A stretch of DNA of 63,384 nt, filler included, from Globobulimina sp. (Eukaryota): the NCBI GenBank assembly GCA_003354225.1. It is 29 parts of 29 records of this genome, joined end to end, with 100 filler letters (N's around TTAATTAATTAA, not from the genome) between each part and the next. Parts side by side here need not be neighbours in the genome. Positions count along the whole stretch, not along the records: positions 10,953 to 13,042 come from PIVH01009081.1; 28 more parts are not named here. One strand, 5' to 3'. A program made the position numbers and the translations under genes. Below, piece by piece: positions 2,194-28,367 of the stretch (position 1 is its first letter; each line of letters starts with the position of its first letter). The notes under the pieces are model-generated. The model searched no databases. It saw nothing but the letters and a program-made list of their open reading frames with translations, and was not told where the DNA came from.

Positions 2194-3048
2194 ATGTTGG
2201 GAGATGGCGTGGAGGATAAGTTGCATTGGGTGTCGTTTTTAGGCTATGATGAGGATGAGACCGGTGTGGAATATGGCGGTATGATACCCATTGAGAAGGC
2301 AATCGATTCGTGGGGCGATTGTTTGTTGGTGTATGAGATGAACGGGGCAGAGTTGCCGCGCGACCATGGATATCCAATTCGGTTAATTGCGCCGGGACAT
2401 GCCGGCTGTAGACAGGTTAAATGGGTGCGCGAAATACAACTATTGGAGGTGCCATCGGAGTTAGATTCTGGCAGCAAATTAGATCGGCATTTTGCTCCTA
2501 ATATTTGCTTTGAGAAATTACGGAATGAGGTAAGTTTGCATACATTTATACTGTACATATATGTTCAATTTGGACATGCATAACAGGGTGATTTGGATGA
2601 GAATGATGAAGACGGCTTAGAGATGGCATCAGCGCCGGTTATCCAGACCTTGCCGGTTCAATCAATAATATGTGATTGGCGCAATAATGAGAACAGTTCG
2701 TTGACAGTACGTGGCGTAGCGTGGGCAGGCGGCGGTAAAGCAATCGCCCGCGTCGATGTGTCAATGGATGGTGGTGACACATTTAAAGGTTCAAAGATTA
2801 TAAGCCCTATAAAAACAACATGGAATCGGAATTGGTCGTGGGTACATTTTGAATCTGTGTTAAAATTAAATGACAAACAAAGAGAAATATTAAATAATGG
2901 AAATGATTTGAATGTTGAATTAGTCTCCAAAGCAGTGGATGATAATTTTAACGCACAGCCTGAAAATATGGAACCTTTTTATAATGTGTTAGGTGTTTGT
3001 ATTAATCATTGGAAGCGAATAAATGTTACTATTAAATCAAATCAATAA
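2194..3048 (+). CDS. Sulfite oxidase/nitrate reductase family molybdopterin enzyme (5' partial; Moco and dimerisation domains; intron 2530-2586)
   Basis: YEMNGAELPRDHGYPIRLIAPGHAGCRQVKW, LPVQSII, VRGVAWAGGG, RVDVSMDGG and KAVDDNFNAQPE. A GT..AG intron joins the two ORFs in frame. Confidence 0.92.
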
Positions 3049-10952: not shown

Positions 10953-11528
10953 TTGTACGAAATAGCAAATAATGATTAGTTTTCGCAGTTGGTGTATATT
11001 CATTCGTTGTAATTTTACCAATAAAAACGGGAACACCCAATAAAAAAACCAAATAGTTGACATAAACCATGAAGGCCTACTGAATACATATATTTTACCA
11101 AACCACGTTGACATTCCCAATGCCGTGAATATGTAATATGCTAATGCGTCTTGCGGAGGATTTTTGTCCCAACCGTATATCAAATATTGTATTGGTATTG
11201 CTGACAAATTTGCCAATAAATATATTGGAATAGTTCGTGCTACTCTCTTTAAATAGAAGTTTAATTTATTAAATGGATTATCAACACCGTATTGTTTATT
11301 TCCATTACATATACCAAATACAAATCCTGATATTAGGAAAAATAATGGCATTTCAATTGAACCACTTAGATTAATACCATAACGCCCCATGTAATGATGA
11401 ACCATTATATATATTGATACTAAGCCCTTAATGCCATTTAGGGCGGTTGTATTCACACGTTCAGGTTTAGTTTGGTTTTCTTCAATATTGATTACTATTG
11501 ATTCAACTTGTTCTGGTGGTGTTATCAT
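10953..11528 (-). CDS. Acyltransferase-3 (OafA-like) membrane protein (3' partial)
   Basis: ALNGIKGL...MVHH, FFLISGF, FYLKRVARTIPIY and WFMSTIWFFYWVFP. Confidence 0.88.
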
Positions 11529-11692
11529 TATTGTTTTATTAGTTTTAATTTATTAATATAATAAATTTTGATATGTTTTTTTTAAAAATTATTTCTTCTT
11601 AGGGTTTCTTTCCAATGTGTCAATATAGTTATTTTCCCAATATATATATAATCAAAATTTATTTTTATATATTATAATAACAGATAATCATC

Positions 11693-11842
11693 ATGAGTTT
11701 AAGAAATAAAAAGAAAGATAAGAAAAGAAAAACTTTCGAGAAATACGGCAAATATAACGCAAAGAGTTTGAGAGTGAAAGCATCAGCAACTCACAACGCC
11801 GAGAAGAAAAAGAAACGCCAGGAACAAAATAGAAAATATTAA
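11693..11842 (+). CDS. Small basic 49-aa protein, giant-virus-like
   Basis: Manual translation: MSLRNKKKDKKRKTFEKYGKYNAKSLRVKASATHNAEKKKKRQEQNRKY. Intronless and followed by AT palindromes. Confidence 0.5.
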   Translation: MSLRNKKKDKKRKTFEKYGKYNAKSLRVKASATHNAEKKKKRQEQNRKY

Positions 11843-11958
11843 ATATTTTTAATACATATTTTTAATACATATTTTAATACGTATTAAATAAGTCAATATA
11901 ATATATGTTTTAACTTAAGATATACATTATAAATGTTATATATTATATACAAACAACT

Positions 11959-12285
11959 ATGAACTCATTACAAATATACGAAATCAAAGATTTACAAAAT
12001 ATAATTATTGATTATAAAACCCAATTTGAAATTTTCGAGCATAAACAAAAAATGCAAGCATCATTAAATAAAATCAATGAGATTGAATATGAATATTATA
12101 GAAGCGGTGATTATCACACTTATCGCAGCATGACTGGCGCTCGAACAATGAATGGCATTGAAGTTTCATACGAATTATTTAATTATACGCCTGAATATAA
12201 TCAAGAGAACTTATTTGTATGCAATGATACAACATGTAATTCATTCGCTATTCTCGAGTATAAAAGCAAAGTCACATTCGAATAA
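11959..12285 (+). CDS. Hypothetical protein, NCLDV-like family (paralog of the next ORF)
   Basis: N-terminal KDLQNIIIDYK..FE..EH.QK...SLNKINEIEY is shared with 12332-12775. Confidence 0.6.
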   Translation: MNSLQIYEIKDLQNIIIDYKTQFEIFEHKQKMQASLNKINEIEYEYYRSGDYHTYRSMTGARTMNGIEVSYELFNYTPEYNQENLFVCNDTTCNSFAILEYKSKVTFE

Positions 12286-12331
12286 ATAATAAATTAAAAT
12301 AAATTAAAAGTATCAATATATATTATTATAC

Positions 12332-12775
12332 ATGGATACTTTACCTAAAGATATTGAAAATATTATAATGAATTATAAATATGGAATGGAACATGTTGAA
12401 AAATATTCAAAATGTATGGATGTAATTAAATCAATTGAATACGAGCATGATGTATATTGGGATATGAGGGATGATTCAGATTGGGATAGTGATGATTATG
12501 ACACATATGTTTCAGAACGAGTATTAGATGGATGTTCATCGCGTTACAATTTGAATATATCAGATGGACATGAGCTGTCAGTTGATCGCACTGATATTCG
12601 TAACATCGATGTGGGTAGGTATATGGTGGATACTGAAATTCATGAATGGGGAATTGGTATGGGTGATTTTGTTGAATGTATGGAGGTAACTCATTGTCCT
12701 TATACCAATATTGATATAAGTTGGTATAAGCGTGGTGAATATCGGAGGTGTTATGTAACTGAAATAACTCATTGA
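12332..12775 (+). CDS. Hypothetical protein, NCLDV-like family
   Basis: N-terminus MDTLPKDIENIIMNYKYGMEHVEKYSKCMDVIKSIEY. Intronless with tight spacing. Confidence 0.6.
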   Translation: MDTLPKDIENIIMNYKYGMEHVEKYSKCMDVIKSIEYEHDVYWDMRDDSDWDSDDYDTYVSERVLDGCSSRYNLNISDGHELSVDRTDIRNIDVGRYMVDTEIHEWGIGMGDFVECMEVTHCPYTNIDISWYKRGEYRRCYVTEITH

Positions 12776-12783
12776 GAAGTATT

Positions 12784-12958
12784 ATGAGCGGGATAGGTGG
12801 ATTAATGCACTTAGTCGCCGTGAGTGGTCGCATGAAGGATCAAGGAATAATTGTGGGTATATTGGGTGCGGGTTTGTGAATTAAAGATCTATTCGTTGCG
12901 TGTGGTGCCCGTATTAAGAATCATGTCTGGTATGGGTGATGTATGGCGTTTTGGTTAA
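12784..12958 (+). pseudogene. Relic/miniature of NCLDV major capsid protein termini
   Basis: The frame from ATG 12784 gives MSGIGGLMHLVA (cf. MCP N-terminus GGLMQLVAYG). A different frame, open 12851-12958, gives LKIYS..VLRIMSGMG (cf. MCP C-terminus NVLRIMSGMGGLAY). Confidence 0.6.
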
Positions 12959-14045
12959 GTATCTTCATCCCAAATAAATGTTATAGTATGTTTTAGAACA
13001 TCACAATTGCCAAAATGTTTTTCATACATTCTTAAACCGTTANNNNNNNNNNNNNNNNNNNNNNNNNNNNNNNNNNNNNNNNNNNNTTAATTAATTAANN
13101 NNNNNNNNNNNNNNNNNNNNNNNNNNNNNNNNNNNNNNNNNNCAAAATCAAACAGGTCCTATTCTAAAGTATTTATTCATTAATATTTCTTGATTCCCTT
13201 TCTTATTAATAAAAAACGAAAGATTCCGCAATTAATATAGTTACATTGCAGTGACAGTTTTCACAATTAATTACAGAATCTGGGAAACGCTTGTGACAAA
13301 AAGCAAAAATGCCTATTGTGATACACACCAAAAAAATAAATTTGAAAATCTCGTTCAAGAAACGACGATCAAGAACGAACACAATTTCATATTACAATGT
13401 CAATATATTGTTGATTTATATATCTTGTACATCCTATGTGATTAACATATCATCCAATACCTCATCTTGTATGAGTGCACCATCATGTCTTTGTTGTCCA
13501 TATTCATTAACAGCGATACCATGTACCTTTGTTTGTATTGTAACGCCATCATCGGCATAAACAATATCTGGCTCAGTACCTGGATTTCTTTTATATCCGT
13601 TCTCTTCATTCATTGCCTTTGTTGCTGACGAATAATCTTTCTTTTTGGTTAAATTTTGTATTGCATTCCGACCCTTTTTCTTTTGCTCGTTGCTATTAGA
13701 AACACGTTGCAATGTTTCATTTTGTGTATGCTCTTCATTCTTTGCGTTTGTCTGGTTATCCTTGTATTTTATATTTGTTTCATTCCGTTTCTGTACAGTA
13801 TCAGCAGTAACAGACTAAATAGAAAGCAGTATGTTTGGTAGTTGGTACTAATATATACATGAATGTGAATACGAACAGCCTGGTGAGAATCATCAGGAGC
13901 AGTGAAGCAATCTCCCATGATGTCTACTGTAAAAAGTTTTCCACTGTAAATATATCAACTTTGAATCAATTGCAATGATTGTGATTTAACAATGTAAAAA
14001 AAAGTATTTAATACGACAAACAATTGAATCACTGTGACACTGTCA

Positions 14046-15232
14046 TCAATCATGATCACTATTTGTAACATTGGATTTTAATAATATTTTGCCGACTTCA
14101 TAGGTAGAAACCATAATAGCGCAGGCAATGGGAACCCTCGTCATTCTGGCAGGCAAACCAAGATACAAAGCCGTAACTCCTTCATTCTGAATGATGCTTT
14201 TCGCCAAAGTCACAATTTTTTTCTTATCAATATCCATTTTATTGCTCGGTATCCCCAACAACGTTGCTTGCCGCCTTGTCTTCAGCACATCAAATGGCTG
14301 CGTACACAAAGTAGCAATACTTCCCGATACTGCGCCACTGCAAAATGAGGCGACAAACAGTCTCCATTTGCCAATATTGTCATTATTGTAATTAGAATTA
14401 TTCAGATTTATATTTTGCATACTTATATTTTTTAGTTGCTTTTTAACAAAACAGTCTTTATAATATTCATAAGCCATCCAATATATTCCTGAAAATGGCA
14501 CATCTCTCCATAAGGACGGTATTAATCCCTTCCATAAACTCAACAATCCGCCTTGTGATAAATTCAGCTTTAAAGCTGCAAAAACACTCAAATCCTTATT
14601 TATGGTTCGTGCCTGACACAGAACGGAACAGAAACATAGAAATTGATAGAAATTTAGTACAATTACAGTGAACAGAACAGAACAGAACAAACCATCATTT
14701 GTGTCCGCATTAATTCTAACGGCGAGATAACAGAAACAGCAAAGAGTCGCCCAGTCATACCGGATATTAACGGCATAAATGTAGATATTACTTTTGTGGA
14801 TGATTCGTGTATATGGTTTGTGCCCCATTCATTTGTTTTTTTCAATAGAAAATTGCGTAACAGATCATAGGTACTGTAATATAACACCGTGGCGGGGGCA
14901 GCCATCCATAGTGTTACACCTAAGCCGCTGTATAAGTTCGAGATGCCTTCATATCTGGCTATTTTATAAAACGCATCAAAGGAATGCTTGAATGAGGTGT
15001 GGCGGCAGGAAGACTCAAACACTTCTATGCGTAGACGAGAGGTCGGCAACTGATGATCCATCAAACCATTGCTAAATATATAATAATTTTGATTGATTTT
15101 GGACAGTCGTATGGCTGCAGCTGACATTGTTTGATTGTTTGTATTGTTTACGTTTACATTTAATTTGATTTTGATATTTTTTGCATCTTTGGATTCTTTG
15201 GAATATTTATATTGTTTGGTGCCAGTTTCTGC
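14046..15232 (-). CDS. Mitochondrial carrier, SLC25A39/40-like (5' partial; intron 14613-14692)
   Basis: NGLMDH, KIARYEG, PATVLYY, SPLELMRT, RDVPFSGIYW, PFDVLKTRRQ and ACAIMVSTYE. Confidence 0.92.
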
Positions 15233-19888: not shown

Positions 19889-21508
19889 TTAATGTTTATT
19901 TTTAGATGTTATTGTCACAGTGACTGTTTGTCCATTATATTTATTATCATTACTATTATAGATCTCAACATAATTCCCATTAATTCTGTATGTCACAATA
20001 TCGGAACTCGGCAAAATACTCTAACTGAAACCATTTGGATACCAATATTCTAAATTTGTATAAATAATGGTTGGTTTGCTAATCTCTACATTCACATCAT
20101 AAATCAAAGTATAATCCCCACCATTTCTCCAATCAAATTTCATAACCTTGGCATTGCCTGCAACCTTTTGCGCATATGTCCGACTTAAACCTTTTGCAAC
20201 ACCAACATCCAAACTTCCATTTTTACGAAACAAACCATATCCACATCCAGTACATGTCCCATCTGACAATGAGCCAGCAAATGGTTTATATTCCCATCCA
20301 ATCCATGACACCAAATAATTATCACAATAATCCATTGTAACATACATTCCTTCACCATCACCAACATTAAACTCTGTCAAAAAACTAGTCGCATTCAGTC
20401 TTATCCCATCATGAGTTCTTTGCGAAAAATATTTATTTTCATCCCCATCATTAGGCGCTGCAGTAATTAAAACACAATACTTTCCAACAGAAAAAAACAA
20501 AAACACGTCATACGTTTATAATAATGAAACGCAAAAACACTTTTATTTACAAATTCTTGTCCACCGGGAACGTGCGTGAAGCCAATATCATCCAAACTGA
20601 TATTAAACTCATCGGTCCATGTCACTGACTCAAAAAATACCACCCGTTCACTATCATTTCCATATATTACCCGCTGTATTCTATCATAGAAAGGTTGCAA
20701 ATTGTCAAAGTCAGCTCTGCCTATAACAAAATATGTAACTATAATACAATAAATACACAACAAAAATAAATATAGTTTTACCAGGATACATTAAAAAAGG
20801 ATGCTCATAAATGCCTCCAGCCCAGGGTTCATTCATCAATTCAAAGCCGAGAATGCCACCTATTTTATCAAAGTACTTTGCTAAAACACCCCAATAATCT
20901 GCAAATTGATCAGCTAATCCATTGTGATTGTCATAAAGTCTCTGGAATGCAGAAGATGTGGCTTGCGTTGCATAGTAACTGGCCCATGATTGTTTGGCAC
21001 AGTCTTGTTTGGAGGGAATGTGGTCACTGCCGGTGTTGTATGGCGCTGAGAATGGTTCTGGAAAATCCCATACTAAAGGTTGGGTTGCCCAAACTGCTGC
21101 TCCTTCGCCACATAATGCCTCGGATAATACGTCCTGATGAGAATCAACCAATGTTGAAATGTTGTATTGGTTATATGCGGTGCTGATCAATGTTGCTGCG
21201 TTGTTTATATATGTCATATTGTAATAATTTTTGGAAGGTTGGACACCAGGCCACATTACACCTAATCGGATGGCATTTTGTCCCAAAGAATTCAAGAGTT
21301 GCATATCTTGAATGGAAAACGATAGGTTAGCATCGAAATGATCTTGTATTGGTAAATACGGTGAAGACTTATAAACAACGTTTAAACCATGAAAGAAGCA
21401 TTCACGATCATTTAAATCCAAAATACGGTTATTCCTAACACGGAATTTCTCGACTTTTTGTGCTGTGCAATCAAGTAACAGAATTACAAGGACATGTAAG
21501 AGGAACAT
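19889..21508 (-). CDS. Endoglycoceramidase-like GH5 glycoside hydrolase (introns 20721-20781 and 20458-20513; in-frame TAG at 20021-20023)
   Basis: FHGLNVVYK, NAIRLGVMWPG, DSHQD, GFELMNEP (acid/base), AFHYY, FLTEF (nucleophile) and SWIGWEYK. Confidence 0.92.
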
Positions 21509-26436: not shown

Positions 26437-28367
26437 TATTATTATTATTATTTATTCGCGATTTGATACGCAATTCACATGAGAGAATGGGTTAGTAACA
26501 GACAAAAACAATATAAATTTCACACATAAAATCAGTTAGACACGTGACTAGATTTATAATGTTGAAATATATTTTAAGATCTCTTTAATTTCATTTTTGG
26601 TGAGACCGCATTCTTTCTGACCATCCAGGCATTGATTCAGCTCTTGTATTTGATAGGCAGTTTGTAGCACATCTTCTGTGAAGGCCTCCGCCATGTCATT
26701 ATTTGCCAAAAATGTATTGTTTGCTGATAATGTTGATTTGGGGTTATTTGTGGATGTTTCCCACGTGAAGTGAACTTTGTTATTGTCAGAAGCCATAAAC
26801 TTCTTATTAAAAGTATTAACTCGTTTGAAAATTTGATTTTTCAAATTTGCATTTCCTGCAATTGCAGGTAGCAACCTGGAGTGCGCCATTGGTGGAAGCC
26901 TCCAGATCTTACGCATCACAACATTCCAAGCTGTTCTTATTCTTTTAAGATGTGCTTCATTCAATTTCCATGACTGTGAGCCATAAGCCGCAGTACAGTA
27001 TGTTTGAATTAGCTTACACCTCAAGTCTGCAGGAGCTAATGAAAATGCACTCATGGTGTAATTTGCTTTTTGAACAAAATGAACCCGTTTATTTTCGATA
27101 TCTTCCAGATCGGACAGATTAGGCATCACAATGGTACCCAAGTATTTAAACTGGGAAACCCACTGGATATGCCTATCAGAAATTCGGATTTCTGGAAGAT
27201 TTTCTATGTTGTATCTTTTCTCAGAAAACAACATGCATTTTGTTTTAACGGGATTGAATTTAACTCTGAATTCATAACCAAAAATTTCTAAAATTACAAT
27301 TAACTTTCTGAGGCCATCAACTGTTGGAGATAACAGAGTCAAGTCATCAGCATATGCAAGACACCCAAAGAAATTGCTATCAATATGGCAGCCTACCTTT
27401 GCTCTACTTAGTCTGGATATGAGTTCATCCATGTAGACCGAAAAGAGCACGGCACTGGCTACTGCACCTTGTCTAACACCATTGCTAACAGAAAACTTTG
27501 CTGAATTTGCACCATTCCAGGTAGCTGATATTTTTTGTCTCATGTAACCATCATAAATTAAACGTATCACTGGTCCTGGTAAAGCACGTTTCAGCAATAG
27601 GTTAAACAATTTTACAAAATCAACTAGATCAAATGCTTTGGTTGCATCTACAAAACAAGCATATACATTGCTATTTTTAGACCAAAAATATTGCACAGTT
27701 TCCTTCATGACAGTTGTGCACATAACCGTTGAATGTTCAGACTTATAAGCAAATTGTAGAGCATTGGTTGCCAAAGAAGTATTTGTGTACCTCAGCAAAA
27801 TTATAACATCGAGAAGTTTGATAATGGAGGAAACCAAAGCAATACCCCTGTAATTTTCTGAGTTACATAGATCGCCCCTCTTGTTTTTGGGAATTTGAAC
27901 CAACAGAGCATCAAGAAATGATTTTGGCGTGTAACCATGTACCATCATTGCAGTAAACAACCGGCTAAGGCATCTTTCCAATGCTCTACCACCATGAATT
28001 ACATGGTTACTGTAAAACGATTCCCCATCATGCTTATCTGATTTAAGTTTTAAAATCGCCTTTTTAACTTCAGCAACCGATACCTGACATATGTTTGCTT
28101 CAGCCATTCGTGCCCTAATCTCAATCCGATGTTCTAACATTTCTTGCTGTGCACTATTCTCTCCATATGAGTTGTACAAAGCAGAATATTTGTCAGCAAA
28201 AAGATTGGCAATGTCTTCATCATTTGTTTTGTTATCCATCTGAGCAGCACTGGATGCATCATGACCAGAGAGCTTTTTAAGCTCCATGAACAAATCACGA
28301 GTATTTTCAGTAGCCAGTTCACCCAGTTTGAGACGTCTCAATTGTTTTTGATTTTTCAAGCATTCTT
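26437..28367 (-). mobile_element. Non-LTR (LINE) retrotransposon, 3' part: RT ORF 26554-28367, 3' UTR and (AAT)n tail
   Basis: NYRGIAL, QFAYK..HST, FVDATKAFD, GVRQG, YADD and KYLG. The minus strand ends in GCGAATAAA(TAA)n at ~26437-26459. Confidence 0.93.

Follow-up and report, generated by a model that had tools for sequence, protein, structure and literature searches.

What kind of object is a locus, 12784-12958, that carries motifs from both ends of a giant-virus major capsid protein (MCP) and nothing of the protein in between? The locus lies in a window of 63,384 bases, by which we mean the whole stretch of DNA that was analyzed; it is made of 29 contigs of 2,088-2,091 bp each, ordered by size, and has a GC content of 33%. 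The contigs are joined by linkers of the form N44-TTAATTAATTAA-N44 (e.g., 13043-13142), so that adjacency between contigs is artificial and features spanning a linker are meaningless. The sole real context of the locus is the 2,090 bases of its own contig, 10953-13042 (GC 29.4%). The features discussed below are collected in Table 1.

The NCLDV double jelly-roll MCP, which we take to be Pfam Capsid_NCLDV (PF04451) together with its N-terminal domain family, provides the reference. Giant-virus capsid genes in IMG/VR start with M(G)GGLMQLVAYG and end with NYNVLRIMSGMGGLAYSN and the stop codon. At least 157 IMG/VR stretches, many of them named GVMAG, matched a degenerate DNA pattern for VLRIMSGMG. 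Among the 69 full-length ORFs drawn from these stretches, GGLMQLVAYG was present within the first 20 residues in 62, and 65 ended in GMGGLAYSN directly before the stop, in agreement with the end motifs that the first-pass annotation had given for NCLDV MCPs. Its description of the reading frames was also confirmed when the sequence was read again: coordinates, stops, and an overlap of the two frames at 12851-12879, where a single +1 shift would give a peptide of about 57 aa. Frame A begins MSGIGGLMHLVA and reads in full MSGIGGLMHLVAVSGRMKDQGIIVGILGAGL. Frame B, in the +1 register, is open from 12851 and has the C-terminal end ELKIYSLRVVPVLRIMSGMGDVWRFG (short form VLRIMSGMGDVWRFG) before the TAA at 12956-12958. 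The two motifs are therefore out of frame with each other and separated by stops; since frame A stops at 12877-12879, no continuous ORF holds both without the +1 shift or the removal of 12820-12886.

Of VLRIMSGMG the window keeps 9/9 positions and of GGLM-LVA 7/8, and GMG is still followed by a stop at a distance of six codons. It contains exactly one match to each motif, 121 nt apart and on the same strand. When the whole window was shuffled 300 times (mononucleotide shuffles, six frames), none of the shuffled sequences contained GGLMQLVA at 7/8 or better, and none contained VLRIMSGMG at 7/9 or better. A chance origin of the two motifs is excluded; the first-pass annotation had called their occurrence in the right order unlikely by chance. 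With an HMM of the MCP C-terminal tail, the frame-B segment ranked first of the 2,889 segments of the window (19.0 bits, E 1e-4), and tblastn of MCPs gave alignments running from 12866 or 12881 to 12937. The head is the weaker match; with a 32-column head HMM the locus was second-best in the window, with 8.9 bits vs 10.0 for an unrelated 14-aa segment. Compared with the MCP head motif M(x)GGLMQLVAYGAQD, GGLMHLVA is retained at 7/8, but it is not followed by YGAQD, and tail-like residues come before it. Compared with the tail motif NYNVLRIMSGMGGLAYSN plus stop, VLRIMSGMG and the position of the stop are retained, NYN and GLAYSN are replaced, and none of the six residues after GMG is identical to the LAYSN-type MCP end. 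Pfam hmmscan and PDB phmmer with the 26-31-aa peptides of the locus gave no match at E values up to 10. Queries of that length are too short for the filters of these programs, so this negative result is not evidence against homology.

The body of the protein is gone. A full-length MCP HMM built from the 69 sequences and run on the 2889 stop-to-stop segments matched only a 35-aa tail segment (E 0.0092), and no jelly-roll core was found with it in the window. The locus resembles an NCLDV MCP in GGLM-LVA, in VLRIMSGMG and in the stop six codons after GMG, but it differs in having neither of the two jelly-roll domains (the 69 full-length examples have at least 360 aa), in its broken frames and in the absence of any Pfam match. 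It is not a functional MCP, since both jelly rolls, which such proteins carry in one ORF of about 360-680 aa, are missing and no intact frame is left. The locus rather classifies as a giant-virus gene relic, as it combines significant similarity to parts of the parent gene, lost coding integrity and a virus-derived neighborhood. Taking all routes to a dead relic together, we estimate a probability of about 0.8 that the stretch is non-functional wreckage of the ends of Nucleocytoviricota MCP genes. The first-pass annotation had spoken of a decayed, internally deleted MCP. Of this reading the MCP-derived motifs, the missing core and the broken frames stood; the picture of one gene with a hole did not fare as well, as the composite nature of the first motif points to two paralogues.

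Table 1. Features of the locus, its contig and the host introns used for comparison (window coordinates).
Feature	Position	Strand	Remarks
Partial acyltransferase-3 gene, cut at contig start	10953-11528	-	Pfam PF01757, E 2.5e-13
108-aa ORF, tandem paralogue of the 147-aa ORF	11959-12285	+	BLASTP E 6e-06, N-terminal domain (first ~40 residues)
147-aa ORF, upstream neighbor of the relic	12332-12775	+	Giant-virus small-protein family, N-terminal LPKD[LI]ENIIxxYKYxxEHxEK
Tail-like part of motif 1, frame A NSLRSIMSGIGGL	12766-12804	+	Resembles MCP C-terminal NVLR-IMSGMGGL; starts upstream of the ATG
Frame-A ORF, 31 aa	12784-12879	+	ATG 12784-12786, TGA 12877-12879; no MCP likeness detected past residue 12
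Head-like part of motif 1, GGLMHLVA	12796-12819	+	7/8 to MCP N-terminal GGLMQLVA; GGL is shared with the tail-like part
67-nt interval without MCP likeness, candidate intron	12820-12886	+	GTGAGT...AAG; removal joins frames A and B in frame
Tail 2, frame B LKIYSLRVVPVLRIMSGMGDVWRFG + TAA	12881-12958	+	VLRIMSGMG 9/9; stop six codons past GMG, as in MCPs
Host intron 1	2530-2586	+	57 nt, donor GTAAGT, acceptor CAG; split Pfam domain and in-frame join
Host intron 2	14613-14692	-	80 nt, donor GTTTGT, acceptor CAG; split Pfam domain and in-frame join
Host intron 3	20458-20513	-	56 nt, donor GTATGA, acceptor CAG; split Pfam domain and in-frame join

That composite nature became apparent when motif 1 was scored with both profiles. 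The head HMM gave 8.4 bits on GGLMHLVA, and the tail HMM (columns 17-28) gave 11.9 bits for the domain and 12.4 bits for the segment on NSLRsIMSGIGGL, with an E value of 0.012 over the 2889 segments of the window. MCP head and tail motifs resemble each other (MSG-GGL), which calls for caution, and as a control 93 distinct natural MCP heads, each with its 10 upstream codons, were scored with the tail HMM; none exceeded 2.7 bits. The spacing agrees with the scores, as MSGIGGL has seven residues like the tail MSGMGGL, where MSGGGL heads have six. In addition, the ATG is preceded by the tail-like N..LR.I, in a place where promoter DNA would be expected before a plain head. On these three observations the locus looks like a tail-head followed by a tail, not like a plain head followed by a tail; along the DNA, a stretch of 67-97 nt without MCP likeness separates the tail-head from the second tail. 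The extra tail-likeness of motif 1 should be read with the caveat that it comes down to about five residues and the spacing. Of the two MCP termini claimed by the first-pass annotation, the N-terminus is therefore not a pure one.

A tail-head composite points to two adjacent paralogues rather than to one gene with a hole, and such neighbors are common. MCP paralogues in giant-virus genomes often stand head to tail, 36-130 nt apart, and the IMG/VR loci contained 48 distinct tail-to-head MCP junctions with spacers of 36-600 nt. G-G-L is encoded as GGN-GGN-YTN in the tail (ending in IMSGMGGLAYSN and a stop) as well as in the head that comes next (MGGGLMQLVA...). The spacer between them has a conserved promoter-like T-run and TATAAAA motif; in L004, L025, L032 and L066, for example, a T-run is followed by CTAT..TAAGGTATAAAA just before the ATG, and this is probably the late promoter of those viruses. 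The locus shares with tandem arrays (L045-L050, L073-L076, L032-L034) a tail and a head within tens of bases and G-G-L codons in both. It differs from them in that the arrays have a stop, an AT-rich spacer of 36-600 nt and full-length copies, whereas in the locus the tail runs straight into the head and neither body is left. ATG 12784 stands only 8 nt past the stop of the 147-aa ORF and thus lacks an AT-rich promoter-like spacer like those before natural MCP heads.

The route that we favor for the origin of the locus, tentatively and at somewhat less than even odds, is the collapse of two neighboring MCP paralogues. The starting state would be two MCP paralogues head to tail, with G-G-L codons in the tail of one and in the head of the next. 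If the DNA between these direct repeats were deleted, AYSN and the stop would be lost together with the promoter spacer and the start of the next gene, leaving ...LR-IMSG-GGL|M-LVA..., the composite found at 12766-12819. Later deletions would have cost the upstream copy its body and the downstream copy all of its jelly-roll body. Of the two genes there would remain some 13 codons of tail, some 8 of head and roughly the final 25 codons, which still carry the original stop, in two frames and 190 bases. The order and mechanism of these deletions are what we infer from the sequence, as is the view that nothing is expressed from the locus. Among the points against the two-paralogue route are these: it takes three deletions, where a simple internal deletion takes one, and the fused intermediate that it proposes lacks an observed precedent, as a search of IMG/VR for fused tail-head junctions gave 0 matches.

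That simple internal deletion is the closest competitor. A single MCP paralogue would have lost its whole jelly-roll body in one event, MSGIGGLMHLVA would be its N-terminus, and the tail-likeness upstream would be a coincidence. The explanation is the most parsimonious one, it accounts for an ATG, a 7/8 head and a 9/9 tail in the right order on one strand, and heads that start with MSGGG or MSGG do occur (3/69). It nevertheless leaves motif 1 about 10 bits above any of the 93 natural heads on the tail HMM, the fit to a head needs an insertion of one residue, and the ATG stands 8 nt past the upstream stop instead of behind an AT-rich promoter-like spacer. We regard it as possible but rather doubtful. 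An artifact of assembly or amplification, in which reads from both ends of a real MCP gene were joined into a chimera, is unlikely. The assembly is of low coverage and highly fragmented, with contigs of about 2.09 kb. Logan contigs from three DNA runs (X1-X3; one sample, one study), with a depth of 3-5 on the contig of the relic, span 10953-11517 (there as a 94%-identical paralogue) and 11808-12615 and leave 12616-13042 uncovered, so that they neither confirm nor contradict the joint. A simple chimera would however join intact ends, and here both ends have diverged from all MCPs examined: the six final tail residues have 0/6 identities, and the ends are kept apart by 97 nt of unrelated sequence. 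Against the favored explanation it can also be said that both neighbor genes look intact, which is unusual beside heavy decay, and that a 9/9 VLRIMSGMG next to six fully diverged last residues is uneven for neutral decay; the uneven decay of tail 2 could reflect a divergent source paralogue.

The remaining explanation is that the locus works as a mini-gene, with the MCP end motifs on a peptide of 35 aa (if spliced) or 57 aa (if shifted by +1) that would act as a tag, a scaffold mimic or a dominant-negative decoy in capsid assembly. Exactly three GT-AG intervals join the frames without a stop, and 12820-12886 is among them. In this interval GTGAGT comes directly after LVA and AG directly before IY, and splicing it out would give 35 aa from two exons, MSGIGGLMHLVA with 12 codons (12784-12819) and IYSLRVVPVLRIMSGMGDVWRFG with 23 (12887-12955). 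The length of 67 nt falls within the range of 56-80 nt of the three host introns, the borders are GT-AG, the donor is a good one, and the residues retained are the most conserved ones of the MCP. The composition of the candidate is another matter: it has 37% G, 30% T, an AAG acceptor and no pyrimidine tract, whereas the host introns, three in all in this comparison, are T-rich with 37-52% T and 16-23% G, and end in CAG (3/3). This leans weakly against splicing of 12820-12886. The mini-gene would also have to do without a promoter spacer before its ATG, and its last six residues have diverged. No relatives of such a form came to light. Head-then-tail pattern scans, which need well-kept motifs, gave 0 true matches in IMG/VR with gaps of 1-61, 61-121 and 121-181 nt and 0 in the JGI metagenomes with a gap of 61-121 nt. 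The smallest distance from head to tail among 100 pairs in IMG/VR loci was 1059 nt. Short giant-virus ORFs carrying both termini, for which the first-pass annotation had suggested a search, were thus seen neither in the IMG/VR pattern scans nor among the 100 pairs. A full-text search of the literature found no MCP head-plus-tail mini-form either, which, for a literature covered in part, is not proof of absence in print. On these grounds we consider a working mini-gene very unlikely. The capsid-targeting or decoy mini-protein that had been proposed finds no continuous ORF, no promoter spacer and no mini-form in the IMG/VR or JGI scans to stand on. It is most improbable that the host or a virus keeps a spliced or frameshifted peptide of 35-57 aa made of the two most conserved end segments of the MCP, those at the capsomer base, as a capsid-assembly decoy or cargo tag.

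Eight apparent "mini-MCP" matches in IMG/VR were rejected as false positives; they are full-length MCPs in which the codons for GTCNLSRID, read out of frame, give HMQLVAY. These codons belong to one clade of full-length MCPs (L158-L165), where SGTCNLSRID in the other frame reads HMQLVAY 101 nt upstream of the tail motif. In three loci, L159, L164 and L165, the MCP tail RIMSGMGG runs on as TMSFILQFVLQSMI... in place of LAYSN and the stop, which could reflect an intron or else an alternative extension at the C-terminus. A tandem duplication of 81 or 139 nt inside the relic was likewise considered and rejected, as a local alignment of 12760-12866 with 12867-12960 scored 17, which 217 of 1000 shuffles reached, and TRF gave none. 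An exact 13-nt repeat, TGGTATGGGTGAT, occurs at 12655-12667 and 12928-12940, encoding G-M-G-D in the 147-aa ORF (GIGMGD) and in the relic tail (SGMGD). Its score was reached by 4 of 500 shuffles, and it could be due to chance or be the trace of a third tail fragment.

The neighborhood of the relic was analyzed next to the relic itself. With the full set of 1.84 billion representatives, an exhaustive phmmer search with the 147-aa ORF gave 12 matches at E<=1e-3, and 11 of these are small proteins of 87-127 aa that share an N-terminal LPKDLENIIxDYKYQxEHxEKF domain. A word-based search of 5.8 billion proteins gave no match, and a Pfam scan assigned no family to the 108-aa or the 147-aa ORF. The family was found at 4 loci in IMG/VR, in two giant-virus MAGs and including a tandem pair (L166), and at 29 loci in metagenome contigs. 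All 33 loci have a GC content of 15-27%, and in one of them an MCP tail lies about 3 kb from a member of the family. The nearest ESM-Atlas clusters were 100% Nucleocytoviricota, which is a lead rather than proof. The flanking ORFs thus do have NCLDV homologues, in a giant-virus small-protein family; the first-pass annotation had counted their absence among what would speak against its reading. With its two ORFs in this family, the 2.09-kb contig 10953-13042 is giant-virus-derived, be it as an insertion in the host or as DNA of a co-sampled virus. The GC content of the relic (44.6%) stands above that of the contig (29.4%) and of its intergenic DNA (20%), consistent with a foreign, formerly strongly constrained coding piece. 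The possibility that the 108-aa ORF is a diverged MCP fragment was raised by one tblastn match (E 0.005; 69 queries, relaxed settings) and rejected, as the full MCP HMM gave E 15.

The small-protein family can be described in its own right. It lacks a Pfam entry, and its members (loci L166-L198, proteins P0002-P0012) are about 85-150 aa long, with a conserved N-terminus and a variable C-terminus, and are often found in tandem. The LPKDLENIIxDYKYQxEHxEKF family was found only in AT-rich giant-virus or metagenome contigs (15-27% GC). At the other end of the contig, the acyltransferase-3 fragment 10953-11517 shares 94% identity, with 32 differences over 565 bases, with a contig of run X1 at a depth of 23, which diverges at 11517 and indicates a higher-copy paralogue of the gene in the sample.

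Viral capsid fragments that have been kept by a host are known from the restriction factors Fv1 and enJS56A1, which are long, expressed and conserved ORFs of retroviral origin. Under the mini-protein reading only, the locus would be like them a capsid fragment kept by the host that interferes with assembly or uncoating; it differs in that Fv1 and enJS56A1 are expressed and conserved, while the relic is known here as sequence. If it were true that the peptide is expressed and conserved, it would bear on capsid-derived antiviral defense, and the decoy reading, if true, would mean that a protist or fungus has an antiviral micro-protein derived from a capsid. A shortened MCP derivative does exist among the giant viruses: of 93 MCP tails with enough upstream DNA, one, in L015 (GVMAG-M-3300018417-32, tail at 2501-2526), belongs to a shortened ORF. 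It resembles the relic in being shortened with a conserved tail, and differs from it in having one open frame of 215 aa with a K-rich, non-MCP N-terminus and roughly the final third of the fold (E 5.5e-48 over HMM columns 292-414).

Taken as a relic of MCP gene ends, the locus falls in with what is seen elsewhere and leaves current understanding as it is. Eukaryote genomes with eroded giant-virus genes (GEVEs, NCLDV-derived regions) are well documented, as in PMC12210455, PMC4083422, PMC10640383, PMC12455990 and PMC8204020. Like such GEVEs, the relic belongs to virus-derived, partly eroded genes among cellular eukaryote sequence; what sets it apart from them is that only gene ends are kept, and that integration is not shown by its 2.09-kb contig, which has no clearly cellular gene. 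It is one more eroded giant-virus remnant, unusual only in its gene-ends-only content and its fused tail-head junction. The contig is evidence of a past or present association between the organism and an AT-rich Nucleocytoviricota lineage, and the relic illustrates a way in which tandem capsid arrays may collapse, by means of the G-G-L codons that tail and head have in common.

Cellular eukaryote genes were found by Pfam on the other 28 contigs of the window. A scan of the 45 ORFs of at least 110 aa in the window identified a proteasome alpha subunit, TBP, PI3K, PP2A-B56, a mitochondrial carrier, NTF2, protein kinases and one reverse transcriptase. These ordinary cellular genes indicate that the assembly is that of an AT-rich eukaryote with short introns. 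The reverse transcriptase is a 601-aa ORF on the minus strand (26554-28359) with an RVT_1 domain (E 1.5e-26), which indicates that a retroelement is present in the assembly.
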